From the NCBI GenBank assembly GCA_035540655.1, contig DATLGC010000163.1, positions 1 through 55,316 of the forward strand: a DNA stretch of 55,316 nt, given 5' to 3'. Under the pieces are notes generated by a model that was not told where the DNA came from, did no database searches, and saw nothing but the letters and a program-made list of their open reading frames with translations. Both the position numbers and the translations under genes were made by a program. The DNA is from Sphingomicrobium sp. (lineage in GTDB: Bacteria > Pseudomonadota > Alphaproteobacteria > Sphingomonadales > Sphingomonadaceae). This document shows, piece after piece, positions 2,219 through 20,044 of the stretch (its first letter is position 1; every line of letters begins with the position of its first letter).

Positions 2219-3622
2219 GTGGCGGCCGACGAAATGCCCGCCTGGGTGCTGATCGCCTATCTCGTCGCCGGAGTGTGCTTCATCCTCGCGCTGCGCGGGC
2301 TGTCGCATCCCGAAACCAGCAGGGCAGGCAACCGAATCGGGATGACGGGCATGGCCATTGCGGTCATCGCCACCCTGGCGTCCCACGACCTCGCCTCGAT
2401 CCCCGAGATCGCCGCCGCGATCGCCATCGGCGGCACGATCGGCCTGGTCATCGCCCGACGCATCCAGATGACGGCCATGCCGCAGCTGGTCGCCGCCTGC
2501 CACAGCCTGGTCGGAATGGCCGCGGTTCTGGTCGGTGCGGCCGCCTACCTCAATCCCGGCGCCTATGGGATTTTGGGCCCGGACGGCATCTACCAGGTCA
2601 CCCGGGTCGAACTGGGCCTCGGCGTGGCGATCGGCGCGATCACCTTCTCGGGTTCGGTCATTGCCTTCCTCAAGCTCAACGGCAACATGTCGGGAAGGCC
2701 GATCCTGCTGCCCGCGCGGCATGTGATCAACCTTGGAACGATTGCCGCCATCCTCGGCCTGATCGGCTATTTCACTTTCGACCAGAGCCCGTGGGTTTTC
2801 GTCACCATCGCCGCTTTGTCGTTCGTCATCGGCTTCCTGCTCATCATTCCTATCGGCGGCGCCGACATGCCGGTCGTCATCTCGATGCTCAACAGCTATT
2901 CGGGATGGGCGGCGGCGGCGATGGGCTTCACGCTGCACAATACGGCGATGATCATCACCGGCGCGCTGGTCGGCAGCGCCGGCGCAATCCTCTCCTACAT
3001 CATGTGCCGGGGAATGAACCGGAGCTTCATTTCGGTGATCGCCGGCGGCTTTGGCGGCGAGGCGATCGCCGGCGGGGGCGAGGCGATCGACCGGCCATGG
3101 AAGCGCGGCTCGGCCGAGGACGCGGCGTTCATGCTCGCCCAGGCCGAGCAGGTCATCGTCATCCCGGGCTACGGAATGGCGGTCGCCCAGGCGCAGCATG
3201 CGCTTCGCGAAATGGCCGATATCCTCAAGGAAAAGGGCGTCCGGGTGAAATATGCGATTCATCCGGTGGCGGGCCGGATGCCGGGGCATATGAACGTTCT
3301 TCTGGCCGAGGCGAACGTGCCCTATGACGAGGTGTTCGAGCTGGAGGATATCAACTCCGAATTCTCCCAGACCGACGTCGCCTTCGTCATCGGCGCCAAC
3401 GACGTCACCAATCCGTCGGCGAAGACCGACAAGAGCTCGCCGATCTACGGAATGCCGGTGCTCGACGTCGAAAAGGCGCGGACCGTATTGTTCGTCAAAA
3501 GGTCGATGGGCGGGGTCGGCTACGCGGGCGTGGATAACGAGCTATTCTACCGCGATAACACGATGATGCTGCTTGCCGACGCCAAGAAGATGGTCGAGGA
3601 AATCGTCAAGAGCCTAGATTGA
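2219..3622 (+). CDS. pntB: NAD(P) transhydrogenase subunit beta
   Basis: IGGADMPVVISMLNSYSG, PGYGMAVAQAQ, HPVAGRMPGHMNVLLAEA motifs; GTG 2219 is the likely start. Confidence 0.95.
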   Translation: MAADEMPAWVLIAYLVAGVCFILALRGLSHPETSRAGNRIGMTGMAIAVIATLASHDLASIPEIAAAIAIGGTIGLVIARRIQMTAMPQLVAACHSLVGMAAVLVGAAAYLNPGAYGILGPDGIYQVTRVELGLGVAIGAITFSGSVIAFLKLNGNMSGRPILLPARHVINLGTIAAILGLIGYFTFDQSPWVFVTIAALSFVIGFLLIIPIGGADMPVVISMLNSYSGWAAAAMGFTLHNTAMIITGALVGSAGAILSYIMCRGMNRSFISVIAGGFGGEAIAGGGEAIDRPWKRGSAEDAAFMLAQAEQVIVIPGYGMAVAQAQHALREMADILKEKGVRVKYAIHPVAGRMPGHMNVLLAEANVPYDEVFELEDINSEFSQTDVAFVIGANDVTNPSAKTDKSSPIYGMPVLDVEKARTVLFVKRSMGGVGYAGVDNELFYRDNTMMLLADAKKMVEEIVKSLD

Positions 3623-3693
3623 GTCGGCTTCGGTTCAGCAAGGCTCGAGCAGGATTCCGGTTCGGGTCTTGGCACGGTGAGAGGGACGGGCAC

Positions 3694-4410
3694 TTGCGCA
3701 AGCTTGGAATCATCGGCGGGACCAGCTGGTCGTCCACCGCGCTTTATTACGAGCATATCAACCGCGGAATCGCCCAGCGGCTCGGCGGACTGCATAGCGC
3801 CCGGCTGGTGATCGAAAGCCTCGATCTCGCGCCCGTGGCGGAAAAGGAGCTGTCGGGCGACTGGGACGACGTCGCCCAGATCCACCTCGAGGCCGCCCGG
3901 CGCCTGGAATCGGCCGGCGCGGACGGGGTGATCATCACTTCGAACACCGGCCACAAGGTATATGACGCAGTGTCCGCCGAAATCGGCGTTCCGATGCTCC
4001 ACATCGCCGACGCGACCGCCGATAAGCTCGTCGCCGACGGCCGCAGCCGGGTCGCCCTGCTCGGCACCCGCTTCACGATGACCGAGCCGCATGTCCGAAG
4101 CCGCCTCGAGAGCCGCCGAATCGCGCTGGCGCCGGTCGATGTCGGCTGGACCCGCGAGGTCGACCGGATCATCTTCGAGGAGCTTGCCGCCGCCCGGGTG
4201 GTCCGCGACAGCCAGCGCAAATTGAAGACCTTGATCGTCGAGCTTGCCCGCCAGAAGGTCCAGGCGGTCGTGCTCGGCTGCACCGAGCTGGTGCTTGCCG
4301 TCGATACCCGAGCCAACGTCATTCCCGTTTATGACACGACCGCGATCCACGCTCGCGCAGCCGTCGAGTGGATGCTCGCCGACGAAGAGCAGTCGAGGGC
4401 GGCTGCCTGA
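3694..4410 (+). CDS. Aspartate/glutamate racemase family protein (YgeA/RacX-like)
   Basis: LGIIGGTSWSSTALYY..RLGGLHSA and LGCTEL motifs; likely TTG start at 3694. Confidence 0.9.
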   Translation: MRKLGIIGGTSWSSTALYYEHINRGIAQRLGGLHSARLVIESLDLAPVAEKELSGDWDDVAQIHLEAARRLESAGADGVIITSNTGHKVYDAVSAEIGVPMLHIADATADKLVADGRSRVALLGTRFTMTEPHVRSRLESRRIALAPVDVGWTREVDRIIFEELAAARVVRDSQRKLKTLIVELARQKVQAVVLGCTELVLAVDTRANVIPVYDTTAIHARAAVEWMLADEEQSRAAA

Positions 4411-4476: not shown

Positions 4477-5628
4477 TTGGACATAAGAGCTAGCGACGCA
4501 TTCCTTGCCGACACGCTGCGCGCGCCGCCGGCTGCGTGGCCAGCCGGGCGGGACGGGGAGGGGGCCTCCGACCGGCTGTTCGAGCGGGTCTGCTACCACG
4601 GTATTGCCGGACTGCTGATCGATATTGGTGGCGTCGGCCCGTGCTGGCCGCACGAACTTCGTCGCCGCATCCACGGCCATGCGATCGGCCAGGCGATGTG
4701 GGAGGCCCGCCATCAGGCCGAGCTGGCGCGACTGCTTGGCGCACTTGCCGAGCGCGACCTCGAAGCGATCCTGCTCAAGGGCACTGCAATTGCCTATGAC
4801 CTCTACGGGACTCCTTCTGCCCGGCTTCGCGGGGACAGCGATTTACTGGTTCGCGAGGACCAGCTGGGAGAAGTCCGGCAGGTTCTGCGTGCGCTTGGCT
4901 GCGTCCGTCATCTCAGCGGAAGGCCGCTGCCCGACCGGCTCGAGCTTCAGGAAAGCTGGGCGATCGAGGCGCCGGGTTCCCGGCAGCTGATCGATCTCCA
5001 CTGGTCCGCGCTCAATTCGCTGGCGCTTCGCAATGTGTTGCGTTTCGATCAGATCCGGTCCGCCCTGATGCCCTTGCCCCGGCTGTCAAAGGACGCGGTC
5101 GCCGCCGATCGCCCGATCTTGCTCCTGCACACCTGCCTTCACCGGGCGATGCACTGCGTTTCACCCTATTTCGTCGATGGAGTGACTTATTATGGGGGCG
5201 ACCGGCTGATCTGGCTGTATGACATCCGGCTGCTGGCGGCCGCGTTGAGCGAAGAACAGTGGGAAGCGTTTCTGGTCCTTGCCCATCACACGGGCACGTC
5301 GGCGCCCTGCCGTGAAGGCCTTTCAATGGCTAAACTGCGACTTGGCAGCAGAGTGCCCGACGCGGTCATGGCCAGACTTGCCAGTGGCGAGAGAAGCAGC
5401 GCTAGCAGCTATTTGCGGGGAGGACAGTTGCGGCGATCATCGATGGATGTCCTCGCCGTGCCCGGCTTACGGGACAAGCTTCGATTGATCGGCGGCCGGC
5501 TGTTTCCCGGAGGCGCGTTCCTGAGGGCGAAATATCCGCGCATGGCGCGCATGCCGATCGCCATCCTGCAAGCGCGGCGATTTGCCGACATGCTTCGCGA
5601 CCGGCCGCGGCAAGGCAGTGGCCAATGA
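4477..5628 (+). CDS. Nucleotidyltransferase family protein (NTP_transf_5-like), lasso-cluster associated
   Basis: ILLKG..LY..PSARLRGDSDLLV, IDLHW and RLIWLYDI motifs typical of this family. Confidence 0.85.
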   Translation: MDIRASDAFLADTLRAPPAAWPAGRDGEGASDRLFERVCYHGIAGLLIDIGGVGPCWPHELRRRIHGHAIGQAMWEARHQAELARLLGALAERDLEAILLKGTAIAYDLYGTPSARLRGDSDLLVREDQLGEVRQVLRALGCVRHLSGRPLPDRLELQESWAIEAPGSRQLIDLHWSALNSLALRNVLRFDQIRSALMPLPRLSKDAVAADRPILLLHTCLHRAMHCVSPYFVDGVTYYGGDRLIWLYDIRLLAAALSEEQWEAFLVLAHHTGTSAPCREGLSMAKLRLGSRVPDAVMARLASGERSSASSYLRGGQLRRSSMDVLAVPGLRDKLRLIGGRLFPGGAFLRAKYPRMARMPIAILQARRFADMLRDRPRQGSGQ

Positions 5629-5644
5629 GCCGCCGAGGGCTCGA

Positions 5645-7531
5645 TTGAGCGGCATCTGCGGCATCCTCCGCCTGGACGGCGGTCCGGTTACTGCGCCCGA
5701 AATCCGGGCGATGATCGGGCCGCTGAAGCGCCGTGGCCCTGACGGCGCGAATGTTTGGCTCGGCGACGGCGTTGCCCTTGGCCACGCGCTGTTAGCGACG
5801 ACCCGCGAGGCGGCGGCGGAGCAGCTTCCGCTGGCCCACGAAAATAGCCAGTGCGTGATCACCGCCGATGCCCGTATCGACAACCGAGACGAGCTTGCCG
5901 CGGAGCTTGGGCTAAATCTTAGCGAGCGAATGATCGGCGACGGCGAGCTGATCCTCCTGGCTTACCTCAAATGGGGCGAGAATTGTGTCAAGCATTTCCT
6001 GGGCGATTTTGCCTTCGCCATCTGGGACGGTCGCACACGGCGGCTGTTCTGCGCCCGCGATCAGGTCGGCATGCGCCAGCTCATCTACTGCCACCTTCCA
6101 GGCAATCTCTTCTTGTTAGCCACAGAGCCGAGGGCGGTTATCGCACACGCTTCCGCGCCGCGCGAGATCAATGAAGGGCGGATTATCGATTACCTAGAAA
6201 ACTTGGGCGGCTTCGATCTTGTAGAGACCTTTTACAAAGGTGTGTTTCGGTTGCCTCCGGCTCACCTTCTGGTCGTCGACCAGCAACGCCTGTCCGTCCG
6301 CCAGTACTGGTTCCTCCAACCAGAAAACGAATTGAAGCTGGGGTCTGACGAAGCCTATTCCGAAGCTTTCCTCGACGTCTTTCAACAGGCTGTCCGCAGT
6401 AGGCTTCGGAGTTCTGGGCCGGTGGGCGCGATGCTGTCCGGCGGAATTGATTCGGGGAGCGTTGCTGCGGTGGCGGCGAGGCAGCTTGCTGCGACTCACA
6501 AGGGTCCGTTGCAAACCTTTTCAGGGGTAGGACCGGACCCGTCCTCCTGCATCGAAACGCGAACGATCCGCGCCGCGCTGACAATTTCGGGGATCGAGCC
6601 GGAGCTCGTCAGCCTCGCGAGCCTCGATGGATATATTGAGGAGCTGGCTCAGCTCACCCGCTGCATTGACGAACCGACCGACGGCCAAATGACCCTTCTT
6701 CGGGTCGTGTACCTCGCGGCCAACCGATCAGGCATCAAGGTGGTGCTTGACGGCGTCGGTGGGGACACCGTCCTTTCGGCAGGCAATCACGTGGCACGGC
6801 TGCTTCGCCGAGGATGGGTGACTGAAGCCATACGGGAGGCCCGCGGGGAACAATCGTTTTGGGGACATCAACATCCAGCCCACAGGGCGTTCGCCCTAGG
6901 GGCATGGCGTGCATTCGTTCCGAAGGGAATTCGCCACGTTAGACAAAATGCAATCGCGGCAATCCGGGACCGAATCGATCACGGAGCCCACATTAGTGCT
7001 GGGTTATTCAGCAATGCGAGGGAGCGTAAGCGCCGCTGGCGCCAACACTTAACGCCCTTCGATTCCACCGCTCGAGATGAGCGGGCACTGCTTATCCGCC
7101 ATCCGTACCTGACAATCGGGCGAGAAGCGTACGACCGCGTCGCATCGGCTCTTGCAATCGAACCGAGGGATCCGTTTGTCGATCTCCGCCTTGTTCGCTT
7201 TTCACTGGCGCTCCCTCCGGAGCAGCTGCAATCGCGCGGCTGGCCAAAGCTGATCCTTCGCAAGGCAACGGCTGGCCTTCTTCCCGAAGAAGTGCGCTGG
7301 CGCCCGGGCAAAGAGCATCTAGGCTGGTCGTTCACCCGTGCTCTGTTCGCGTCTCGCTGCTGGTCAGAAAAACTTGACGGGCACCCCAGGGAAACTATTT
7401 CGCGTTTCGTTGCTTTAGATCAGATCGAGTCCGTCCAACGGAAGTGCGGGGACTCGAAAGCTTTTGTCGATTGGGTCAATGCCGTGTACCTGAGCTTATG
7501 GTTCGATTCCGTGAACGGAGGGAGGATTTAG
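5645..7531 (+). CDS. Lasso peptide cyclase (asparagine synthetase-like, C protein)
   Basis: Likely start MSGICG (Ser where Ntn glutaminases have the catalytic Cys); RGPDG, GDFAFAIWD, ARDQVG, LSGGIDS ATP motif, DGVGGD, RDPFVD, KLILR..LLPEEVRWRPGK; flanked by precursor, RRE and B2 genes. Confidence 0.9.
   Translation: MSGICGILRLDGGPVTAPEIRAMIGPLKRRGPDGANVWLGDGVALGHALLATTREAAAEQLPLAHENSQCVITADARIDNRDELAAELGLNLSERMIGDGELILLAYLKWGENCVKHFLGDFAFAIWDGRTRRLFCARDQVGMRQLIYCHLPGNLFLLATEPRAVIAHASAPREINEGRIIDYLENLGGFDLVETFYKGVFRLPPAHLLVVDQQRLSVRQYWFLQPENELKLGSDEAYSEAFLDVFQQAVRSRLRSSGPVGAMLSGGIDSGSVAAVAARQLAATHKGPLQTFSGVGPDPSSCIETRTIRAALTISGIEPELVSLASLDGYIEELAQLTRCIDEPTDGQMTLLRVVYLAANRSGIKVVLDGVGGDTVLSAGNHVARLLRRGWVTEAIREARGEQSFWGHQHPAHRAFALGAWRAFVPKGIRHVRQNAIAAIRDRIDHGAHISAGLFSNARERKRRWRQHLTPFDSTARDERALLIRHPYLTIGREAYDRVASALAIEPRDPFVDLRLVRFSLALPPEQLQSRGWPKLILRKATAGLLPEEVRWRPGKEHLGWSFTRALFASRCWSEKLDGHPRETISRFVALDQIESVQRKCGDSKAFVDWVNAVYLSLWFDSVNGGRI
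7521..7525 (+). promoter_or_regulatory. Shine-Dalgarno (GGAGG) of the lasso precursor, inside the last cyclase codons
   Basis: GGAGG lies 7 nt before ATG 7533. Confidence 0.8.
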
Positions 7532-7532
7532 A

Positions 7533-7670
7533 ATGACTGGTAAGCGCGAGCGTAAAGTGTATTCTTCACCGACGCTGGTGAGATATGGTGATTTGGCCGG
7601 GATCACGGCAGGTGGCGTTGGCTCGGTGGTCGAAACAGGCGGTGGTAACACTAACAAGAAACCCGGTTAA
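7533..7670 (+). CDS. Lasso peptide precursor, 45 aa: MTGKRERKVYSSPTLVRYGDLAGITA|GGVGSVVETGGGNTNKKPG
   Basis: Hand-translated. Leader motif YxxPxLxxxGxxxxxT, Thr at -2, core starting with Gly1 and Glu at position 8, strong SD, directly after the cyclase. Confidence 0.92.
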   Translation: MTGKRERKVYSSPTLVRYGDLAGITAGGVGSVVETGGGNTNKKPG

Positions 7671-7688
7671 GCCGGCCGGTTCAGTAGG

Positions 7689-8603
7689 TTGCAGAGCACC
7701 GAGAGGCGCCGCGATTGCGGAGCCTTTAATCGAGCTTCGGCGCTCGCGGAGAGTCATAACTGGTCACTTTTGGTCGCGGCAAACCCATGCGTCGCCGGGG
7801 AGTTTATGCCCGTCGACATGGCGAGTCAGCCGGGTTTTCTACTCGGACGTGATTTAAACAAGTGCTCCCGGTTCCTCGTTTCGTTTCCCAACCTTGCGGA
7901 TTTCGAAGTTGATTGTCGCGAAAGAACCGTAAGCATATTCGAACATCATTCAGGTGCTAGCGAGCAAACGATCCAGCACCTCTTGCTGGATCAACTCCTG
8001 CCCCGGTTATTGGCATGTGCTGGCGATCTTGTGGTCCACGCTGCGGGCTTCGCCACAGTAACAGGTTCGGTGCTTCTGACCGGGCTGTCAGGGAAGGGGA
8101 AATCCACTCTGGCCGCCAGCTTTCACGCCGCCGGACATTTGTTGTTAGGAGACGATGCCATGATCGTCCACGCGGCACTCGGGGCGGTTTCTTGCCGCTC
8201 CGTCTATCGAAGCCTGCGTCTCCACCGGGACTCGATCGAAGCGGTGCTGCCAGGAAAGCGAGAACTCGCGCCCGTTGCGGAGCACACCGATAAGCAAAAT
8301 GTCATAGACCTTGGTCCGTCGCCTGAGGTTGCCAACGAGCAGCCTGTTAGGGCAGTTTACTGCCTTGGGGAGCACAGTGATACGATCCGGGTCAACAGAA
8401 TGTCTCCGGGCGAAGCATGCATGGCGCTTGTCGAACATAGCTTCTGGTTAGACCCGGCAGATCTCGAGCAAACGAAATCTCGTCTTATAACTGCCAGCGA
8501 AGTTGCGAAAGGCGTTCCCGTCTTTAATGTTGCGTACCCACGCGATTATGGCTCGCTGCCGCGGCTGCGACAAATCATCCTAGGCGGTCATGATATTCAT
8601 TAA
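7689..8603 (+). CDS. HPr kinase-like P-loop kinase (lasso kinase type)
   Basis: VHAAG..LLTGLSGKGKSTLA..LLGDD (His, Walker A, DD signature); start uncertain. Confidence 0.85.
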   Translation: MQSTERRRDCGAFNRASALAESHNWSLLVAANPCVAGEFMPVDMASQPGFLLGRDLNKCSRFLVSFPNLADFEVDCRERTVSIFEHHSGASEQTIQHLLLDQLLPRLLACAGDLVVHAAGFATVTGSVLLTGLSGKGKSTLAASFHAAGHLLLGDDAMIVHAALGAVSCRSVYRSLRLHRDSIEAVLPGKRELAPVAEHTDKQNVIDLGPSPEVANEQPVRAVYCLGEHSDTIRVNRMSPGEACMALVEHSFWLDPADLEQTKSRLITASEVAKGVPVFNVAYPRDYGSLPRLRQIILGGHDIH

Positions 8604-8634: not shown

Positions 8635-9789
8635 GTGCCTAAAGGATATAATATCTTTATGTACGGTCGGATGGTGACCTCCGAGCCGCGCATGTCGGCC
8701 TACGCGGAGGCGCTGAGACAGGCGATAAGCCCGGGCTGCACGGTCTTCGACATCGGCGCCGGGCCTGGGGTCTTCTCGCTGCTTGCCTGCCGATATGGAG
8801 CCGGCCGGGTGGTGGCGATCGAGCCGGATGATTCCGTTGAGCTCCTGCGCCCCCTGGCAGAAGCCAACGGCTGCCTCGACCGGATCGAAATCTTCAAGGG
8901 CCTGTCGACCGACTTTGCCCCGGTGGGCCGAGCGGACGTAATCGTCTCGGATCTGCGCGGCGCTTTGCCGCTGTTCGAGCACCATATTCCAGCAATCAAG
9001 GACGCGAGGGAGCGTTTGCTGGCGTCGGGCGGCACGCTCATCCCGGCGCGCGATACGATCCGCATCGCACTCGCCCAGAATGCGAAAAACTATTCCGATC
9101 TTTGTGTGGAGCCCTGGCTCCAAAATCGGTTTGGACTCGACCTCTCTGCAGGCCACCAGTTCACGGCGAACCTGCTCGCGCAGGTCGAGCCGGAGCACAC
9201 CAAGCTATTGTCGGAATCCGCCGATCTCGCGGTGCTCGACTATTATTCGGTCACGGACCCCGATTTTTCGGGAGACGTGGAGCTCGAAGTCGAGGTGGAA
9301 GGCGCCCTTCACGGGCTGCTGATGTGGTTCGATTCCGAGCTTGCGCCCGGTATCGGCTTTTCCAACGCGCTGGACCAGCCGCCACAAATATACGGGCGAG
9401 TCTTCATTCCTCTCGAACAGGCGCTCGACGTCGCGCCTGGCGACCGAATCCAGGTGAACCTAGTCGCGAAGCTCGTCGGCGGCAGCTACGTTTGGGCCTG
9501 GAACAGCAGGCTGGTCCGGCCCGGCGACTCCGAGCCCGAGGCAAGCTTTCGGCAGTCGACCTTCCTTGGAAAGGTGATTGACCCCGATGCACTGCGGGTG
9601 CGTGCATCGACCTTCGTTCCGCCGCGGTCGGATGATCACGAGGTCGACCGTTTCTGCCTTTCGCTGATTGATGGGCGGCACAGTCTCGGCGAACTCGCCG
9701 ACAAGCTTCGGGAAAATTTTCCCGCTCGATTCACCCACGCCTCGCAGGCCCTCGACCATGTCACGCGATTGACGGGTCGTTATCGATAG
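8635..9789 (+). CDS. SAM-dependent methyltransferase with PRMT-like fold and C-terminal winged-helix-like tail
   Basis: RMSAYAEAL, VFDIGAGPG, VVAIE, ADVIVSDLRGALPLFE (double-E loop equivalent), ARERLLASGGTLIP, LHGLLMWFD (PRMT beta-barrel); tail LSLIDGRHSLGELADKL. Start may be ATG 8659. Confidence 0.8.
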   Translation: MPKGYNIFMYGRMVTSEPRMSAYAEALRQAISPGCTVFDIGAGPGVFSLLACRYGAGRVVAIEPDDSVELLRPLAEANGCLDRIEIFKGLSTDFAPVGRADVIVSDLRGALPLFEHHIPAIKDARERLLASGGTLIPARDTIRIALAQNAKNYSDLCVEPWLQNRFGLDLSAGHQFTANLLAQVEPEHTKLLSESADLAVLDYYSVTDPDFSGDVELEVEVEGALHGLLMWFDSELAPGIGFSNALDQPPQIYGRVFIPLEQALDVAPGDRIQVNLVAKLVGGSYVWAWNSRLVRPGDSEPEASFRQSTFLGKVIDPDALRVRASTFVPPRSDDHEVDRFCLSLIDGRHSLGELADKLRENFPARFTHASQALDHVTRLTGRYR

Positions 9790-9829: not shown

Positions 9830-10111
9830 GTGATGACGGACATTCTGCGGCAGAAGCTCGAGCCGACCGGGGACGCGGTGGAAAGCCGAGTGGGGGACGA
9901 AACCGTTCTCCTTCACCTCAAGCGTGGAACTTACTACGGCCTTGACCCCCTGGGAACCAGAATCTGGTCGTTCCTCAAGGAGGGCAAGGAGCCGCAGGAG
10001 ATCTGCCAGCTTGTGGCTGCGGAATTCGAGGTCGAGCACGAAACGGTGGCGGACGATGTTCGGCGCTTCCTGTCCGATCTGAAGGCGAACGATATCGTTG
10101 TCGAACTGTAA
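9830..10111 (+). CDS. PqqD-family RiPP recognition element (lasso B1/E protein)
   Basis: VGDETVLL..GTYYGLDPLGTRIW..EFEV..DVRRFLSDL; about 90 aa; GGAGG SD. Confidence 0.92.
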   Translation: MMTDILRQKLEPTGDAVESRVGDETVLLHLKRGTYYGLDPLGTRIWSFLKEGKEPQEICQLVAAEFEVEHETVADDVRRFLSDLKANDIVVEL

Positions 10112-10125
10112 GTCGGAGCCAGCCG

Positions 10126-10581
10126 ATGGGCATGTTCGCCAAGGCCGCGAAACTGGGCATTGGCGAGTGGCGTGACGTCGGTCGTGCGGTCATCGAACTG
10201 GCGATCGCACGAGCCTGGATGGCGTTCGCGGACCCGGAAAAATTGCTTGCCACAGCCGCACCGTCGGGGGGAGCGGCGGACGATTGCGCGAGCGACCATG
10301 ACGTGGCGCTCGTCCGCCGCGTTTCGGTGGCCATCGGCCGCGCCGGCGCTCGGGTGCCGTGGCGTTCGGATTGCCTCGTCCAGGCGCTCGCTGCCCAACG
10401 ATGGCTGAGACTAGGGGGGGTCCAAAGCGACCTGTTTATCGGTGTTCGCCCCGCCAATGGTGAAGGGGTCGACGCGCACGCCTGGCTGGTCAGCAGCGGA
10501 TCGGTGGTAACCGGGGGTGACGTCAGCGGCTTTACGCCTTTGGTGACTCCCGATGTGCTGGCGGCGCTCGCCTCGCGCTGA
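10126..10581 (+). CDS. Lasso peptide leader peptidase B2 (transglutaminase-like)
   Basis: DCLVQALA..LFIGV..AHAWL Cys/His motifs. Confidence 0.92.
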   Translation: MGMFAKAAKLGIGEWRDVGRAVIELAIARAWMAFADPEKLLATAAPSGGAADDCASDHDVALVRRVSVAIGRAGARVPWRSDCLVQALAAQRWLRLGGVQSDLFIGVRPANGEGVDAHAWLVSSGSVVTGGDVSGFTPLVTPDVLAALASR

Positions 10582-10632: not shown

Positions 10633-12579
10633 ATGGACCGGACGCCCGCCAATCGCCCTGACCATCCCGGCGCCGAAGATCGATTCAACGAGGACAAGGC
10701 CACTTACGCGGTTCGCGGCACCGAGGCTCCGGACCTGGACAAGGGCATCGCCGCTATCAGAGAGGTGTGGAAAACATTGCCGGCGCGCCCCGGCGTGTAC
10801 CGGATGCAGGATTCTCGCGGCGAGGTTCTTTACGTCGGCAAGGCGCGGGCGCTCAAGAGCCGGGTTTCAACATACACGCAGATTGCGCGCCTGCCCAAGC
10901 GGCTCCAGCGAATGGTCGCCCAGACCCGCTCGCTGACCATCATAACAACGCGCACCGAAGCGGAGGCGTTGCTGCTCGAGGCGCAGCTGATCAAGCGCTT
11001 TCGGCCGCCCTACAACGTGCTGCTGCGCGACGACAAAAGCTTCCCATTCATCCTGCTTCGCGAGGACCACGCCTATCCGCGGGTTCAGAAGCATCGCGGG
11101 GCAAGGCGCTCGAAGGGCCAATATTACGGACCGTTCGCAAGCGCCGGTTCGGTTACCCGAACGCTCAACGCCCTTCAAAAGCTGTTCCTTCTGCGGAGCT
11201 GTTCGGACAGCTTTTTCGCCAATCGGTCCCGGCCGTGCCTGCTCTACCAGATCAAGCGCTGCTCGGCCCCGTGCGTCGGTCGAATCGGCGAGGAGGATTA
11301 TGCCGAGCTGGTCGACGACGCCAAGGCGTTTCTCGCCGGCCGCTCGACCGGCGTCCAAGCCCGCCTCAGCCGCTCGATGGCGGATGCGGCAGAGCGTCAG
11401 GATTACGAGCTGGCGGCCGTCTATCGCGATCGCCTCCGGGCGCTGACCTATATCCAGGGCAGCCAGTCGGTGCATGCCGAGGGCCTTGGCGATGCCGACG
11501 TATTCGCGCTCGCCTGCAAGGGCGGGGCGATGTCGATCCAGGGTTTCTTCATCAGAGGCGGCCAGAACTGGGGGCATCGCGCTTTCTTTCCCGCGCACAC
11601 CGCCGAGGTCCCCGAGGCCGAAGTGCTGTCAAGCTTCCTCGTCCAGTTCTACGAGGAGATGCCGCCGCCGCGGCGCATCCTGGTCGATCGCAAGCTCGGG
11701 GACCAGGAATTGCTCGAAGAGGCGCTGTGCGAGCGCGCCGGGCGCAAGGTCACGATCGAGCAGCCAAGGCGGGGCGCCCGCGCCAAGCTGATCGATCAGG
11801 CCAAGCGCAATGCCGAGGAGGAGCTCGACCGCCGGCTGGCCGAGACCAGCAGCCAGGCCAAGGTGCTCCGCGAACTTGCCGAGACATTCGAACTGACCGA
11901 GCCTCCCAGGCGCATCGAAGTCTATGACAACAGCCACATCATGGGCACGAACCCGTCCGGAGCGATGATCGTCGCCGGACCCGAAGGCTTTCGCCGAAAC
12001 AGCTATCGCAAGTTCAACATCAAGCGTGCGGAGACTCGGCCGGGCGACGATTTTGCAATGATGCGCGAAGTGCTCGAGCGGCGCTTCGCCCGGCTGGAAA
12101 AGGAGGATCCGGATCGCTCGTCGGGCGAATGGCCGGACCTGATCCTGATCGACGGCGGCAAGGGTCAGCTGTCGGCAGCTTGCGAGATGATGGAGGACGC
12201 CGGGGTCCACGATATCCCGGTCGTCGCGGTGTCGAAGGGCCCCGACCGCAACGCCGGGCGCGAGACATTCCACCTGCCCGGCGGCCGGGAATTGACCCTT
12301 CCGCCCAATTCGGCATTGCTCTTTTACCTTCAGCGGCTGCGCGACGAGGCGCACCGCTTCGCCATCGGCGCGCATCGGCAGAAGCGGGCAAAAGGTCTGA
12401 CGACCTCCAGCCTCGACGACGTCCCGGGCATCGGCCCGTCGCGCAAGCGGGCGCTATTGATGCATTTCGGAACGGCTCGCGCCGTCAAGGGCGCGGCGCT
12501 GGAGGACCTCGAGCGGGCTCCGGGCATCAGCCGGGCAATGGCGCGTCAGCTCTACGATTATTTCCACCCGCGGGGCTGA
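10633..12579 (+). CDS. uvrC: Excinuclease ABC subunit C
   Basis: GIY-YIG (PGVYRM..LYVGKA), [29 protein letters not shown]-terminal HhH. Confidence 0.97.
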
Positions 12580-13789: not shown

Positions 13790-14941
13790 ATGGCAATCCC
13801 CGAAGAGCGGCCACGGCCCGACCGGCGAACCATCGTCGTCTCCGCGAACTCGTCGTGGAACATCGTCAATTTCCGGATGGGCCTGCTCGAGGGCCTCGCC
13901 CGCAGCGGCTTTCGGCCGATCGTCATCGCGCCGGCCGACAGCTACAGCGAAGCCATCACCGAGCGGGGGTATGAGTTCCGCGCTCTGCCGATGAGCCGGT
14001 CGGGAATGAACCCGGCCGCCGATGCCCTTCTGCTGCTTAGATATTATCGACTGATCCGCGATTGCGGCGCAGCTGCCTATCTCGGTTTCACGATCAAGCC
14101 CAACATCTATGGTTCGATCGCCGCCCGGCTGGCTGGAGCCGAGCGGATCAACAACGTCAGCGGTCTTGGCACGGCCTTCCTGCAACGGGCATGGCTAGAA
14201 CGCCTGGTAAGCGGACTGTACCGACTCGCATTCCGCGGCTCGCACACTGTTTTTTTTCAGAATTCGGACGACTGCAATCTGTTTGTCGAAAAAGGAATCG
14301 TCACAGCTCGGCAGGCAAAACTGGTGCCTGGGTCGGGCGTCGACCTCGATCGCTTCAGGCCAGCTTCGGACGAGCCCGGCGGCCTACCGACCTTCCTGTT
14401 CATTGGCCGGCTGCTCCGCGACAAGGGTGTTAGGGAATATGCCGAGGCGGCTCGGCTTTTGCGCTCGAGGCTGCCGGAGGCGCGCTTCCAGATTCTCGGC
14501 GATCTGGACCCCGGCAACCGGACCGGGATCGATCGCATCGAGTTGCAGTCGTGGATCGATGAGTCCGGTATCGAATATCTGGGGCATTCGGAAGACGTCA
14601 GGCCGTATGTCGCCATGGCGACCGCGGTCGTCCTGCCTTCCTATCGGGAGGGCATGCCAAGAGTGCTGCTGGAAGCCGCGGCAATGGCCAAGCCCTTGGT
14701 GGCGGCGGATGTTCCGGGCAGCCGCGAGATAGTCGTCGACGGTGAGACCGGCCTTCTATGCACCGTGCGCGATGCTGCATCACTGGCCTTGGCGATGGAG
14801 CGGATCGCCGCGATGCCTACGCCGGTTCGGCGCGCGATGGGCGAGGCCGCCCGGACAAAAGTTCAAGCCGAATTCAGCGAAGCGCTGGTAGTCGACAGGT
14901 ATCTCGCAACGCTGCTCGAGGTTGCCGGTTCGGACCGATGA
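13790..14941 (+). CDS. Glycosyltransferase family 4
   Basis: TIKPNIYG, FQNSDD, GSGVD, RLLRDKG, PSYREGMPRVLLEA. Confidence 0.92.
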   Translation: MAIPEERPRPDRRTIVVSANSSWNIVNFRMGLLEGLARSGFRPIVIAPADSYSEAITERGYEFRALPMSRSGMNPAADALLLLRYYRLIRDCGAAAYLGFTIKPNIYGSIAARLAGAERINNVSGLGTAFLQRAWLERLVSGLYRLAFRGSHTVFFQNSDDCNLFVEKGIVTARQAKLVPGSGVDLDRFRPASDEPGGLPTFLFIGRLLRDKGVREYAEAARLLRSRLPEARFQILGDLDPGNRTGIDRIELQSWIDESGIEYLGHSEDVRPYVAMATAVVLPSYREGMPRVLLEAAAMAKPLVAADVPGSREIVVDGETGLLCTVRDAASLALAMERIAAMPTPVRRAMGEAARTKVQAEFSEALVVDRYLATLLEVAGSDR

Positions 14942-15032
14942 GCATTGCGCCCGGCCGATCGTCGGGAACCGGGGGCGGCGCTGACTGTTGCCGCCGGACA
15001 GTTTTCGGAAGGGGTTGGATAGCCGGTTCGTG

Positions 15033-15815
15033 ATGTTTGGCCTTTTTCGTAAGAACTTGTCTCAACCCAAGGCACCCAGGGGCCACCGGGCCTACGCGAT
15101 TGGCGACATCCACGGCCGGCTCGACCTTCTCGACCAGCTGCTGGAGCGGGTCGAGCGCGATAATGCCGAACGAGGCCGGGCTGAGACCCATCTCGTCTTC
15201 CTTGGCGATCTCATCGATCGCGGGCCGAGCTCCTGCCAGGTGGTCGAGCGCCTGCGGACGTATCAGCCGAGAAAAATGAGCACGGTCTTCCTGATCGGCA
15301 ATCACGAAGAAGTTTTGCTCCGGCTGCTTGGCGGCGAGAAAGGTTTGTTGTCGAGCTGGCTGCTGTTCGGCGGCGCCGAATGCTTGCGCAGCTATGGCAT
15401 CGATCCGGACAAGGTGGACCCGGCGGACGAAACCACAGCGCTCAGGCAAGTCGCCAGGGCAATCCCGTCAAAACATGCCGATTTCCTGAAGAGCTTTGCC
15501 GACACCTTTCGTTTCGGTGATTATCTGTTCGTCCATGCCGGAATCCGCCCGGGGGTCGAGCTCGATGCCCAGGATTCGACCGATCTGCGGTGGATTCGCC
15601 ATCCCTTCCTGGAAGACGAGAGCGATCATGGCGTGACCGTCGTGCACGGCCATACGATTTCGCCGGGGATTGACGAGCGACAAAACCGGATCGGCATCGA
15701 TACGGGCGCCTATCGAACAGGGATTCTGACGGCGCTCGGCATCGAAGGCGCCGATCGCTGGGTTTTCAGTACGGCCTCGGAACCATCTTGCGCAGACCGC
15801 GTATCGATTGATTAG
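15033..15815 (+). CDS. Metallophosphoesterase (PrpA-like Ser/Thr phosphatase family)
   Basis: GDIHG, GDLIDRG, GNHE, HAG, HGHT, IDTGA motifs. Confidence 0.92.
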   Translation: MFGLFRKNLSQPKAPRGHRAYAIGDIHGRLDLLDQLLERVERDNAERGRAETHLVFLGDLIDRGPSSCQVVERLRTYQPRKMSTVFLIGNHEEVLLRLLGGEKGLLSSWLLFGGAECLRSYGIDPDKVDPADETTALRQVARAIPSKHADFLKSFADTFRFGDYLFVHAGIRPGVELDAQDSTDLRWIRHPFLEDESDHGVTVVHGHTISPGIDERQNRIGIDTGAYRTGILTALGIEGADRWVFSTASEPSCADRVSID

Positions 15816-15893
15816 GTTCAAAATGGAGGCTAGTGGGTGCCCATCCGGCGTGATTTGGGGGAAGGTTCGCGCATCGAGTGGCGAGGTGTATCC

Positions 15894-16610
15894 GTGACTG
15901 GCGTTAATTCTGTTCGGCCCGCATCGCTCCTTCCTGTTTTGCTGATCGTATTCCTTGGTTTGATATTGTCCGCATGCGCCGACCGTCGCGGCGGCCCGAT
16001 TCCCTATGATCCGAGCGGTTTTGGCACGCCCGACCCGATCGGCCTCACGACGTTGGACGCAAACTACAAGATCGCACCCATGGACACGCTGACCATCCGC
16101 GTGTTCCGAATGCCCGAGCTGTCCGGCGACTATGAAGTCGACCTGACCGGCCATGTGTCGCTGCCGCTGATCGGCAATGTCAGGGCGGCCGATTTCACGA
16201 CCGCCGAGTTGGATGCGGCCCTGACCAGCAAATTCGGCGAGCGTTACCTCGAGAATCCGGACATCAGCGTTGGAATCAAATCGTCGACCTTGCGGACGGT
16301 GACCGTCGATGGCGCCGTCACCAGGTCCGGCTCATTCCCAGTTGCCGGCTCCATGAGTCTCATGCAAGCGGTGGCATTGGCCGGCGGCACTCGCGAAGAT
16401 GCAAATGCGAGGCGGGTCGCGATTTTCCGCCAGATCGGGGGCCAGCGCCAAGCCGCGGCTTTCGACCTTACGAGCATTCGGCGCGGAGAGATGCAGGATC
16501 CGCCCGTTTTCGCGGGCGATATCGTCGTCGTCGACGGGTCGTCGATCAAGGCAACGCAGAAGCAGATTCTGAATAGTCTCCCGATCCTATCAATTTTCAG
16601 ACCCTTCTGA
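15894..16610 (+). CDS. Polysaccharide export outer-membrane lipoprotein (Wza-like)
   Basis: Lipobox LSAC; YKIAPMDTL..SLPLIG (PES domain); SLBB repeat; start uncertain. Confidence 0.88.
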   Translation: MTGVNSVRPASLLPVLLIVFLGLILSACADRRGGPIPYDPSGFGTPDPIGLTTLDANYKIAPMDTLTIRVFRMPELSGDYEVDLTGHVSLPLIGNVRAADFTTAELDAALTSKFGERYLENPDISVGIKSSTLRTVTVDGAVTRSGSFPVAGSMSLMQAVALAGGTREDANARRVAIFRQIGGQRQAAAFDLTSIRRGEMQDPPVFAGDIVVVDGSSIKATQKQILNSLPILSIFRPF

Positions 16611-16632
16611 GTTGCCTGACGCAGGGAGCGGC

Positions 16633-18846
16633 ATGAACAACAATCTACCAGTCGCCAAGGACGAAGGCACGTGGGTCGTCGACCGCTACGGGCCCGGCAA
16701 CCGGCTCCACCCCGATGAGCCGGGACGGACGGCGCCGAGTGTGCTCGATCTCGCTGCGCTGGTGCGGATCATTACTCACTGGCGCTGGCTCATTTTGAGT
16801 GCGGTCATCCTTGGCATTGCCGCCGCGGTCATCATCACTTTGCTGACGACGCCAATGTACCGCGCTAAAGTGACACTTGAGGTGAACCCGCCGAGCGTTG
16901 AAATTCTTGACGAGAATACGCGCGACCGGGGGATTGCGCAGAGTAATTGGGATTTCGTGGCGACCCAGGTCGGGCTTCTGGCGAGCCGTAGCGTCGCGGA
17001 GCGTGCTGCTCAGGATTTGAATCTCGCCAACAATCCTGAATTCGTCGGCACTGGAGGCGATCCTTCGACCCGCCTGAACATTGCTGCAAGTCGTGTAGCT
17101 GGCGGTCTTCGGGTTCGGGCGCCCGACCAGGGGCAGCTCATCGAGTTCACCTATGAGTCGGAATCTCCGCAACTGGCAGCCCAGGTGGCCAACGCGATCG
17201 CCGAGGCGTTCATCAATTCCAATCTTCAGCGTCGATACGAGGCGTCCGCCTATGCGCGAACTTTTCTCGAGCGTCAGATTGCGAAGACCCGAGGGGACCT
17301 TGAAAGATCGGAACGCCAGCTGGTCAGCTATGCCCAGGCGCAAGGCATCATCAACACCGCGTCCGGGGACTCGGGGGCACCGGGCAGCGACGCCAACTCC
17401 CTCCAGGGACAGTCGCTTGTCGCTCTCAATGATGCGCTAGCGACGGCGACCGCCCGTCGAGTTGCGGCCGAGGGGGCATATCGGGCCGCCAGCGCCGCGG
17501 GGGCAACCACCGAAGTGACCGAAGGCTCCCAGCACCTTCGCCAGGCGCGCGCCGCTCTCGAGGCCGAGTATCAAGAAAAGCGGACGATGATGAAGCCCGA
17601 GCATCCCGAGATGCTGAGCCTGCGCTCGCGCATCGACGAGCTCGGGCGGCAGATTTCGCGGGAGACTTCGCAGGTGACGTCGGCCAGGGTCAATTCGCTG
17701 GCTGCCGAATATCGCGCAGCCGTGGCTGCCGAGCGGGCTTTGCAAGGGCGCGTTGCGGCGCTCAAGGGCTCGGTCCTCGATCTGCGCGGAAGGAGCATTC
17801 AATATACGATCCTGCAGCGCGACGTGGACACCAACAGGGCGCTCTATGATGCCCTTCTCCAACGGTACAAGGAGGTTGGCGTGGCCGGCGGCATAGGCGC
17901 CGCGCCTATTTCGATCGTCGACCGGGCCGAGCCGCCGGGGGGGCCGTTCAAGCCTAACCTGCCGCTTAATCTCGCCTTCGGACTGGGCCTGGGATTGATC
18001 GGCGGTGTCGGAGCGGCCGTGGGCCTCGAGTTCGTCAACGATACGATCAAATCTCGGGACGACGTACGAAACAAGCTTGGGTTGGCCTGTCTCGGTGCTG
18101 TCCCAAAGACCGTCGGCAAGACCAGCTTCGTCGACGACCTTCGCGATCCCGGCTCGATGGTTTCCGAAGCTTATTCGGCGGTCGTGGCGGCACTTCGCTT
18201 CAGCACCGACAGTGGCGTGCCCAAGGCCCTGCTGGTGACCAGCGCACGACCCTCTGAGGGCAAGTCGTCGAGCGCCCTGGCGCTCGCCCAGAATTTCTCG
18301 CGCCGCGGCAAGAAGGTTCTCTTGATCGATGGTGACCTGCGCAAGCCGACGTTCAAGACCGCGTCGGAAAAGACGGGCCTGACGCAATTGCTGACCAATG
18401 AGGATTCGGTCGGCAATCACATCGTACAGACACAGTATGAAAATCTCTGGCTCCTCCCCTGCGGGCCACTTCCGCCAAATCCGGCTGACCTATTGTCGAC
18501 CAACCGGTTCCAGCATGTGCTCCGGGAGGCTTCATCCCATTTTGACCTGGTGATCATCGATGCCCCACCCACCTTGGGGCTGGCCGACGCACCGCTGCTT
18601 TCAGCGGTTACCGGCAATGTGATGTTCGTGATCGAGGCCGGGAAAACGAGAACCTCGGCAGCGCGCGAGGCGATCGAGCGGATCGAGTCGTCGGGCGCCC
18701 ATATCATCGGCGCGACCCTGACCAAGGCGACCGAATCCGGTGGCTATGGCTACAAGAACTACGGCTATGGCTATGGCTATGGTTACGGCAAGGTCGGAAC
18801 AAAGCAGAACGAGATCCAGATGATTCCGCAAGGGTCGGATAGCTGA
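16633..18846 (+). CDS. Polysaccharide co-polymerase / tyrosine autokinase (Wzc-like)
   Basis: Two TMs around a coiled periplasmic region; SEGKS Walker A, LLIDGDLRKP, IIDAPP; C-terminal Tyr cluster. Confidence 0.92.
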   Translation: MNNNLPVAKDEGTWVVDRYGPGNRLHPDEPGRTAPSVLDLAALVRIITHWRWLILSAVILGIAAAVIITLLTTPMYRAKVTLEVNPPSVEILDENTRDRGIAQSNWDFVATQVGLLASRSVAERAAQDLNLANNPEFVGTGGDPSTRLNIAASRVAGGLRVRAPDQGQLIEFTYESESPQLAAQVANAIAEAFINSNLQRRYEASAYARTFLERQIAKTRGDLERSERQLVSYAQAQGIINTASGDSGAPGSDANSLQGQSLVALNDALATATARRVAAEGAYRAASAAGATTEVTEGSQHLRQARAALEAEYQEKRTMMKPEHPEMLSLRSRIDELGRQISRETSQVTSARVNSLAAEYRAAVAAERALQGRVAALKGSVLDLRGRSIQYTILQRDVDTNRALYDALLQRYKEVGVAGGIGAAPISIVDRAEPPGGPFKPNLPLNLAFGLGLGLIGGVGAAVGLEFVNDTIKSRDDVRNKLGLACLGAVPKTVGKTSFVDDLRDPGSMVSEAYSAVVAALRFSTDSGVPKALLVTSARPSEGKSSSALALAQNFSRRGKKVLLIDGDLRKPTFKTASEKTGLTQLLTNEDSVGNHIVQTQYENLWLLPCGPLPPNPADLLSTNRFQHVLREASSHFDLVIIDAPPTLGLADAPLLSAVTGNVMFVIEAGKTRTSAAREAIERIESSGAHIIGATLTKATESGGYGYKNYGYGYGYGYGKVGTKQNEIQMIPQGSDS
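18742..18789 (+). repeat. Imperfect GGCTAT tandem repeat encoding the Wzc Tyr cluster (GYGYKNYGYGYGYGYG)
   Basis: Directly visible hexamer repeat. Confidence 0.85.
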
Positions 18847-18934
18847 TCGCACCAGCGGGCGGGGGGCAGTTATTCGCGCGATCCTGATCCTGATCCTGAC
18901 AATACTTGTCGCCGGCCATTCAGTCCGATCGGCG

Positions 18935-20044
18935 ATGGTTGCGGAATATGCCTCGAGCGACCTGGAGAAGGCCGGACGGTTCTGGCCTGGGCATCCCAAT
19001 GTGACATTGAATCGGGCACTGGCGGGGATTGCCGGGGCGGCCGCAGCCGGTGAATCGCCGGGTGAGACCCTGGTGGCGTCGGGCATTGCGACGTCGCGCA
19101 AGGCGCCGCTCGCAGCCGGTCCTTTCCTGATCCGAGGTGCTCAGGCCCAGCTAGCGGGCAACCGGCCCGCTGCGGAGCGGTCCTTCCTCGAAGCGCGACG
19201 CCGCGATCCAAGGGCTCCAGCCACGCGCTATTTCCTCGCGGAATATTATCTGCAGGCCGGCCGCATCGGTGAAGGCCTCCAGGAACTATCGGTCCTTGCG
19301 AACCTGGTTCCCGGAGGAGCAAATAATCTCGCGCCATTTCTTGCCACCTTTGCCCGAACGAAGGGCGCGAGCGCGCAGCTGCGGCAGCTATTCCATTCCG
19401 ATCCGCACCTCGAAGCGAGCGTGCTGGGCGAGCTGGCCAAGGACGTCGGCAACGCCCGCCTGATTCTGTCAATCGCCAGCCCGCGGGCATTCGCCCAGGA
19501 CCGTCGCGGCGAATGGCTTCCGTCCCTGCTCGACGGACTAGTCGGGAAAGGCGATTTTGCCGCCGCCCATCAACTTTGGCGGCGCGCTTCCGGAGTGCGC
19601 AGTCATCAGGGGATCTTCGATCCGGCGTTCCAGGGCAATCCCGCTCCGCCGCCGTTCAACTGGAATTTCGCGGCCGGTGGCGTAGGCTTTGCCGAACCTA
19701 CCGGTGACGGCGGTCTTCGGGCGATCTTCTACGGCCGGGATAATGCGGTGCTTGCCAGCCAGACCTTGTTGCTCCGGCCGGGCCGGTACCGACTGTCGAT
19801 GAAGGCGAGCGGATCCCGCGATTCAGCCAGCCTGATAAGATGGTCGATCACCTGCCTTCCGAGCGGGACTCAACTGCTGTCTCTGCCACTTTCGGTCAAT
19901 CCGGGCGAAACTCTGTCGGGCAGCTTCGAAGTGCCCCAGGGGTGCCGAGCGCAGCGGTTGGAGCTGGTCGGCACGGCACCCGAATTCCCGCAACAGGCCG
20001 ACGTCATCGTGTCGGATTTGCAGCTCGCTGGACCGGGCGGTTGA
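18935..20044 (+). CDS. TPR-like protein with C-terminal beta-sandwich, associated with wza/wzc (true start probably upstream)
   Basis: Helical repeat-like segment (FLEARRRDPRAPATRYFLAEYY); PPPFNW motif; open frame extends to about 18839 through a hydrophobic stretch. Confidence 0.7.
   Translation: MVAEYASSDLEKAGRFWPGHPNVTLNRALAGIAGAAAAGESPGETLVASGIATSRKAPLAAGPFLIRGAQAQLAGNRPAAERSFLEARRRDPRAPATRYFLAEYYLQAGRIGEGLQELSVLANLVPGGANNLAPFLATFARTKGASAQLRQLFHSDPHLEASVLGELAKDVGNARLILSIASPRAFAQDRRGEWLPSLLDGLVGKGDFAAAHQLWRRASGVRSHQGIFDPAFQGNPAPPPFNWNFAAGGVGFAEPTGDGGLRAIFYGRDNAVLASQTLLLRPGRYRLSMKASGSRDSASLIRWSITCLPSGTQLLSLPLSVNPGETLSGSFEVPQGCRAQRLELVGTAPEFPQQADVIVSDLQLAGPGG

Follow-up and report, generated by a model that had tools for sequence, protein, structure and literature searches.

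An earlier note, made from the letters of a 55,316-nt stretch of Sphingomicrobium sp. DNA (hereafter the window), described a 45-codon gene as encoding a lasso peptide precursor whose tail lacks the usual steric plugs, and suggested that threading may depend on two lysines or on tailoring that adds bulk. Aromatic locks are nonetheless the rule among lassos (PMC13352647; published work is cited here by PMC number for the parts of each text that were available). The locus raises the question of what would hold such a tail in its ring, and whether an enzyme of its own cluster takes part.

The precursor gene and its cluster

The features read from the letters in the earlier note were all found in the sequence, namely an ORF with a GGAGG Shine-Dalgarno site, a leader with Thr at -2, Glu8 as the only acidic core residue and an 11-residue tail without Phe, Tyr, Trp or Arg. 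The second of two overlapping GGAGG copies ends 7 nt upstream of the ATG, and the spacer contains the TAG stop codon of the cyclase gene (7529-7531). The leader matched the NCBIfam lasso leader model NF033521 with 19.3 bits, the cut-off being 19. With a family leader profile built without the window precursor and without its nearest relative, it scored 36.6 bits, and the runner-up among the 39,564 open segments of the genome reached 9.1. The Tyr, Pro, Gly and Thr of the leader were invariant in 30/30 aligned precursors, and the gene lies between those of the cyclase and the kinase, the same slot as in relatives. Contigs of runs X3 (7478-7660) and X4 (7537-7687) agree with it letter for letter over the precursor, with zero differences, and an assembly error was consequently excluded.

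The core begins with a small residue (Gly1), contains Glu8 (codon 7632-7634), has neither Cys, Arg nor Met and ends in KKPG, the codons of Lys16 and Lys17 being 7656-7661. The calculated monoisotopic mass of the cyclised core is 1695.854 Da, to which each phosphate would add 79.966 and each methyl 14.016. Among 99 related clusters, 95 have the acidic core residue at position 8 and the other 4 have it at position 9. The leader motif, Thr(-2), core Gly1/Glu8 and a cognate cyclase, B1 and B2 with catalytic motifs are all present, as in class II lasso precursors. Judged from sequence, the 45-codon gene is a real precursor of a predicted class II lasso peptide, and the predicted Gly1-Glu8 ring of the earlier note was supported by the leader model, the cluster enzymes and the conservation of the ring position. 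No second lasso precursor or cluster was detected by profile search elsewhere in the genome, which is 83%-complete. Scans for promoters and terminators around the precursor and for a hairpin 3' of it gave results at chance level, and of 11 runs none was listed as an RNA holder.

Features of the lasso cluster and its flanks in the window
Feature	Position	Strand	Details
Asp/Glu racemase, upstream flank	3619-4410
NTP_transf_5 nucleotidyltransferase (PsmN/BsfN-like)	4477-5628	+	PF14907, 107 bits
Lasso cyclase C (GATase and asparagine synthetase domains)	5582-7531	+	NF033535, 504 bits; SGGIDS motif
Shine-Dalgarno site, two overlapping GGAGG	7517-7525	+	From sequence; copies at 7517-7521 and 7521-7525
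Precursor ORF	7533-7670	+	45 aa, ATG start
Lasso leader peptide, 26 aa	7533-7610	+	YxxPxL motif (YSSPTL), Thr(-2)
Core peptide, 19 aa and stop	7611-7670	+	Predicted Gly1-Glu8 ring; from sequence
HPr-kinase-like tailoring kinase	7689-8603	+	TIGR04352, E 2.9e-14 (below cut-off); HAA, GKGKS and GDD motifs
PRMT-fold SAM-dependent methyltransferase, small helical C-terminal domain	8635-9789	+	PDB sequence matches, predicted model
B1 (PqqD / RiPP recognition element)	9830-10111	+	PF05402, 68.8 bits
B2 leader peptidase	10126-10581	+	NF033537, 70 bits (cut-off 33); Cys83 and His118 motifs
uvrC, downstream flank	10633-12579

The precursor belongs to a co-oriented lasso cluster with six enzymes, in the order nucleotidyltransferase, cyclase, precursor, HPr-type kinase, PRMT-fold methyltransferase, B1 and B2. 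The cyclase probably starts near 5645 and the kinase at 7806. The cyclase falls short of the NF033535 cut-off (525), yet its score is twice the best asparagine synthetase score. The His-Lys-Asp-Asp set of the kinase appears to be complete, its His being assigned from motif order. No ABC exporter gene was found in the cluster, where there is no gap to fit one, whereas relatives such as L016 carry one; a relative's exporter used as query against the genome gave a best match of 32%, on another contig.

The cluster block has a GC content of 61% (66% for the genome) and is inserted between the racemase and uvrC genes. A relative, L009, carries its cluster at the same site, and the two flanking genes are directly adjacent in 2 of the 5 genus relatives tested (L331 and L332). 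The racemase was ruled out as a cluster member, as it is present in 5/5 of these relatives and follows pntB in all 5. Further downstream, positions 13790-20044 hold a polysaccharide-export-like block with genes for a glycosyltransferase, a phosphoesterase and proteins of export and chain length, an assignment made from translations only.

The type of system is known, and the added methyltransferase is its unusual part. Paeninodin (pade), pseudomycoidin (psm) and the Bradymonas bsf system share with it a split B1/B2, the cyclase, an HPr-type kinase, a nucleotidyltransferase and a Cys-less class II core (PMC9266682, PMC6993621, PMC10368454), and to these the window cluster adds the PRMT-fold enzyme. 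The paeninodin/pseudomycoidin type has a C-terminal Ser as phospho-acceptor and an ABC exporter (PMC9266682, PMC6993621), both missing in the window cluster, and bsf has Ile/Val(-2) and Ser3 (PMC10368454) where the window precursor has Thr(-2) and a ring Ser at position 5. Neither a PRMT-fold lasso enzyme nor a Lys-methylated lasso was found in a mainly open-access literature, and supplementary genome-mining tables may list such clusters. Both were also absent from the lists of modifications in the available parts of four reviews (PMC9266682, PMC8498205, PMC11285071, PMC13352647).

The PRMT-fold methyltransferase

A PDB sequence search gave eukaryotic PRMT1/Hmt1 as the closest solved relatives of the methyltransferase (E 2e-20). 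Its predicted model (pLDDT 91.8) matched PRMT2 with Z 32.7 and an rmsd of 2.6 over 308 residues, and the Rossmann and beta-barrel fold is common to it and to the eukaryotic PRMTs (PRMT1/Hmt1, PRMT2, PRMT3 and CARM1; TM-scores 0.64-0.72). The SAM motif is DIGAGPG. However, the double-Glu loop and the THW loop of the arginine pocket are different from those of the eukaryotic enzymes: SEWMGYFLLYE is replaced by SDLRGALPLFE, in which the first Glu of EWMG..YE corresponds to Asp106, and the THW stretch by QIYG. The second Glu is retained in 51/68 members of the subfamily of the window enzyme, and Asp106, Arg108 and Tyr253 are invariant in 68/68. By model and sequence, the enzyme is PRMT-like in fold only and its arginine pocket is altered. 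Arg methylation was rejected, since the pocket loops are altered, the core (leader aside) has no Arg and Arg is rarer in clusters that carry the enzyme. AerE and PoyE were absent among the sequence and fold matches listed, LopH was absent among the fold matches listed, and a predicted complex of methyltransferase, SAM and precursor was uninformative (score 0.02).

Unlike the eukaryotic PRMTs, the window enzyme has an extra C-terminal domain, its last 70 residues forming a bundle made of helices only. This domain matched Pfam PqqD weakly (E 0.021), and its fold matches to PqqD (Z 6.4, rmsd 2.0, 52 aligned) and to lasso B1 proteins (Z 5.7 and 5.4) were below trust level. The methyltransferases of L250, L254, L262, L295, L296, L320 and L321 end before it and adjoin Met-containing cores, which suggests that the domain may be dispensable.

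Among 7,999 candidates scored, 841 homologues of the methyltransferase were obtained at E 0.001. A genome scan with the enzyme yielded 78 loci in several phyla; in 64 a lasso precursor lay no more than 3.5 kb away, and 14 had none nearby. Among 110 enzyme rows two subfamilies were distinguished, subfamily 1 (68 members), in which the window enzyme is placed, and subfamily 2 (42 members, DHxG..G.DY), where all 42 cores contain Met. Four cores beside subfamily 2 enzymes (L277, L286, L288 and L291) have long Gly-Met repeat tails, with 13 Met in L277, for which multiple sulfonium formation or metal binding is possible.

Core methionine and the methyltransferase in related clusters

Control clusters were gathered from three genera (251, 151 and 63 genomes) by way of their cyclase, so that the methyltransferase was not selected on; precursors were called by leader profile, and each of these genomes was searched in full to set enzyme status. 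From the 101 clusters collected, two split or ambiguous ones (G968 and G908) were dropped and 99 were counted. Cyclase matches without a retrieved or readable precursor were left out, for example G925, the second G908 cluster, G1034, G1045 and G1049, together with the third G1042 match and five weak g76 matches near E 1e-100. A cyclase search of 401 family genomes returned mostly ordinary asparagine synthetases. In addition, 80 regions around B2 matches, holding mostly other lasso types or no precursor that matched the pattern, were excluded as controls.

Core Met was present in 54/59 clusters with the methyltransferase (5 of these enzymes being without the C-terminal domain) and in 3/40 clusters without it or with a broken one, the mean number of Met per core being 2.8 and 0.1, respectively. 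The link was maintained when only intact and absent enzymes were compared (49/54 vs 2/36), when an 18-member clade was collapsed (54/59 vs 2/23) and when G968 and G908 were counted as enzyme-absent (54/59 vs 5/42). As kin are not independent, an independent-pair test was applied on the cyclase tree (FastTree, 99 rows): of 10 independent pairs, 7.9 were in favour of a link between Met and enzyme and 0.0 were opposed to it, with a median p of 0.008 (range 0.002-0.06). Of the clusters with a broken enzyme, 3/4 have no Met, and in the sister pairs G990/G905 and G1021/G1018 enzyme and Met differ together, as if lost together. The three Met-positive exceptions are G1061, whose enzyme is frameshifted, G675 and G1027 (unexplained). 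In G675 an intact enzyme is found at a separate site, beside its own Met-containing precursor; at this site (L311:5610-7035) precursor and methyltransferase stand alone, apart from cyclase, B proteins and kinase, and the two-gene module may use the other cluster of G675.

Core Arg showed the inverse distribution, in 22/59 clusters with the enzyme and 37/40 without (not significant on the tree, median p 0.06). Core Lys showed no link (13/59 vs 8/40; 1.5 tree pairs each way), and Met or Lys was present in 59/59 cores with the enzyme and 11/40 without (tree median p 0.03). A conserved basic tail was also considered as a signature of the methyltransferase and was dropped, because clusters without the enzyme end in Arg/Lys too. 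Tails without Phe, Tyr, Trp or Arg occurred in 29/59 clusters with the enzyme and 1/40 without (1/23 after collapsing the large clade); on the tree 4.5 pairs were for this link and 0.5 against, with a median p of 0.22. A tail without a plug is therefore characteristic of the family and tends to accompany the enzyme, weakly so on the tree. The proposal of tailoring that adds bulk gained some support, in that such tails are commoner with the methyltransferase, though the tree test is not significant and it is Met, not Lys, that tracks the enzyme.

From the way in which core Met follows the enzyme through related clusters, we infer that this methyltransferase family probably S-methylates tail Met, and that the resulting S-methyl-methionine sulfonium would be a fixed positive charge in place of the Arg of clusters without the enzyme. 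The SET fold is a lysine-methyltransferase fold. BurB, a SET-domain protein, S-methylates Met (PMC12542666). In a RiPP, Met S-methylation has been described once, by an enzyme that is unconfirmed and of another fold (PMC10664482). This is longipeptin A, where the sulfonium of Met13 occupies a position equivalent to a plug, the same chemistry as that proposed for the Met-type relatives (PMC10664482, PMC11285071). Its unconfirmed enzyme, LopH, is actinobacterial and resembles the SAM-binding domain of MTHFR, and by this description it is set apart from the PRMT-fold window enzyme (PMC10664482, PMC11285071). In addition, the longipeptin A core has Met (PMC10664482), whereas the window core has none.

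Some other arrangements were observed in the collected clusters. Cys-containing cores were found in 7/40 clusters without an intact enzyme (L210, L282, L284, L285, L300, L304 and L330) and in 0/59 with it, and in the former a disulfide in the tail may act as the lock instead. In the split clusters L312 (G968) and L292 with L293 (G908), the tailoring genes have neither cyclase nor precursor beside them and are apart from a cyclase accompanied by Cys-containing precursors. A second precursor at L309:3575-3988 (minus strand), which was not counted, overruns the usual end by some 70 residues, as after loss of a stop codon. Finally, in 13 clusters (L249:3407-3769, L251, L252, L253, L254, L256, L258, L260, L266, L268, L269, L270 and L302:4633-5043) the lasso precursor runs into a self-cleaving Peptidase_S74 domain. 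The Pfam match was above the cut-off in 5/5 fusions tested, L303 has the domain in another frame, and the Met link is also true of the cores that precede this domain.

The lysines of the window core

The usual plugs are missing from the window core, but the oddity of its tail had been overstated, because the lysines come after Asn13, Thr14 and Asn15 and non-aromatic residues are also employed in solved lassos, 17 and 14 of the 20 amino acids occurring at the two positions that flank their rings (PMC12214591). In benenodin-1, an alphaproteobacterial lasso to which the window peptide can be likened, Glu14 and Gln15 hold the 8-residue ring between them and Lys17 is the stopper (PMC13352647). A lock made of lysines, as had been proposed, is plausible and, given this precedent, unsurprising. 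Unlike the window cluster, benenodin-1 is described in the available text without tailoring enzymes (PMC13352647).

Subfamily 1 includes further cores of this kind. Core Met was present in 49/68 of its members and Met or Lys in 68/68. The 19 Met-less cores, which were found by an enzyme-based search and include distant phyla without matched controls, contained Lys in 19/19, at position -2 to -4 in 17, compared with 8/37 Met-less cores without the enzyme, 6 of them with Lys at position -2 to -4. Within the matched cyclase clade the numbers were thin (Lys in 5/5 Met-less cores with the enzyme vs 4/13 without), and Lys overall in the cyclase clade of the window was present in 9/17 clusters with the enzyme vs 6/13 without. 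Like the window core, that of L009 has a KK tail and no Met, and in a comparison of the two clusters the methyltransferase is the best conserved large gene (74% identity; dN 0.177, dS 1.218, dN/dS about 0.15), with dN of 0.17-0.49 for the other cluster genes. By these substitution rates the window methyltransferase is under purifying selection, and, as this holds in a Met-less pair, the enzyme probably has a substrate here. Lys16 and Lys17 are the best candidates for it. However, in the precursor alignment the usual Met site corresponds to Asn15, and Lys16/Lys17 match an RR/KR pair that is common to clusters whether or not they carry the enzyme. None of the active-site positions examined separated Met-only (15) from Lys-only (19) members of subfamily 1, and one pocket would have to accept both substrates, the Met sulfur and the Lys nitrogen lying at different depths. 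In the 2024 RiPP methyltransferase review the sole example of Lys N-methylation, in its available part, is fungal (PMC11285071). Since Met, and not Lys, tracks the enzyme, methylation of Lys in the Met-less window core is something that we infer.

The following course of biosynthesis would be consistent with these data. The kinase and the methyltransferase would act on the B1-bound precursor; B2 would then remove the leader after Thr-Ala and C would close Gly1-Glu8 around the tail, cleavage by B1/B2 and ring formation by C being highly probable by analogy with known lassos. The ring would rest near Asn13-Asn15, with Lys16/17 below it. Ser5 would be the likely target of the kinase, given that Ser or Thr is present at core positions 2-5 in 99/99 related clusters, that a C-terminal Ser is present in 3/99 and that BsfK phosphorylates the ring Ser3 (PMC10368454); phosphorylation of this ring hydroxyl, followed by decoration of the phosphate by the nucleotidyltransferase, is somewhat favoured. 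The chances are about even that Lys16/Lys17 hold the tail and are N-methylated by the PRMT-fold enzyme of the cluster, and the balance is similarly level for the Met-less members in general, where the same enzyme subfamily would methylate Lys 2-4 residues from the end. At the family level, S-methylation would put a fixed cation on Met, in place of the Arg seen in relatives that lack the enzyme. It is less likely, though conceivable, that the added methyls themselves keep the tail threaded; their role may lie in locking, charge, uptake or the binding of a target.

The evidence bears on other explanations as well. The lysines could be ordinary unmodified stoppers, the methyltransferase being Met-specific and siteless in this core or acting on another substrate. 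This is rather unlikely, although Met alone tracks the enzyme, the stoppers of benenodin-1 (PMC13352647) and the variety of ring-flanking residues in solved lassos (PMC12214591) show what unmodified side chains can do, G694 has a Lys tail without Phe, Tyr, Trp or Arg and no enzyme, and the exchange of Met for Lys on enzyme loss in G990 suggests that unmodified Lys is enough. Against it stand the low dN/dS in the Met-less pair and the 19/68 subfamily 1 members that keep a full-length enzyme beside Met-less cores; these are scattered over the enzyme tree (14 state changes), and broken or lost copies occur elsewhere.

Modification of another tail group was considered very unlikely, whether at the amide of Asn13/Asn15 (as by AerE/PoyE) or at the C-terminal carboxyl (as by StspM). 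RiPPs with N-methylated Asn side chains and with O-methylated C-termini are known, Asn15 aligns with the Met position of many relatives and 59/68 subfamily 1 cores have Asn or Gln, but these residues do not track the enzyme (Asn 39/59 vs 29/40, no link for Gln, Asn/Gln tree pairs 0.4 for vs 1.2 against) and neither chemistry explains the Met link. It is also quite unlikely that threading is secured, in the way suggested for pseudomycoidin, by a tail hydroxyl (Thr14) that is phosphorylated and then glycosylated or nucleotidylated, or that the product is an unthreaded branched cycle. Both the kinase and the nucleotidyltransferase are in the cluster, the tail is Gly-rich, and pseudomycoidin made without these two enzymes is unthreaded, bulky groups having been proposed as its lock (PMC6993621). 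However, the window core has no C-terminal Ser, the conserved hydroxyl is in the ring, as in BsfA, and the kinase and nucleotidyltransferase are present both with and without Arg or aromatic tails. N-methylation of Lys16/Lys17 is thus the reading that we retain for the window.

This locus is of interest less for its aromatic-free core than for the enzyme family and the natural knock-outs of that family. The pattern of gene loss singles out one residue as substrate of a bacterial family with the PRMT fold, and the Met-type, Lys-type and natural knock-out clusters constitute a ready-made paired comparison that bears on the proposal that tailoring can lock a lasso (PMC6993621). The most general version, in which the family makes a permanent tail cation (Met sulfonium or Lys methylammonium, one pocket serving both chemistries, with the window as a Lys-type member) that replaces the Arg or aromatic plug and acts as the lock, is rather doubtful. 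If it were true, a widespread bacterial PRMT-fold family would replace the Arg or aromatic plug of lasso peptides with a permanent cation.
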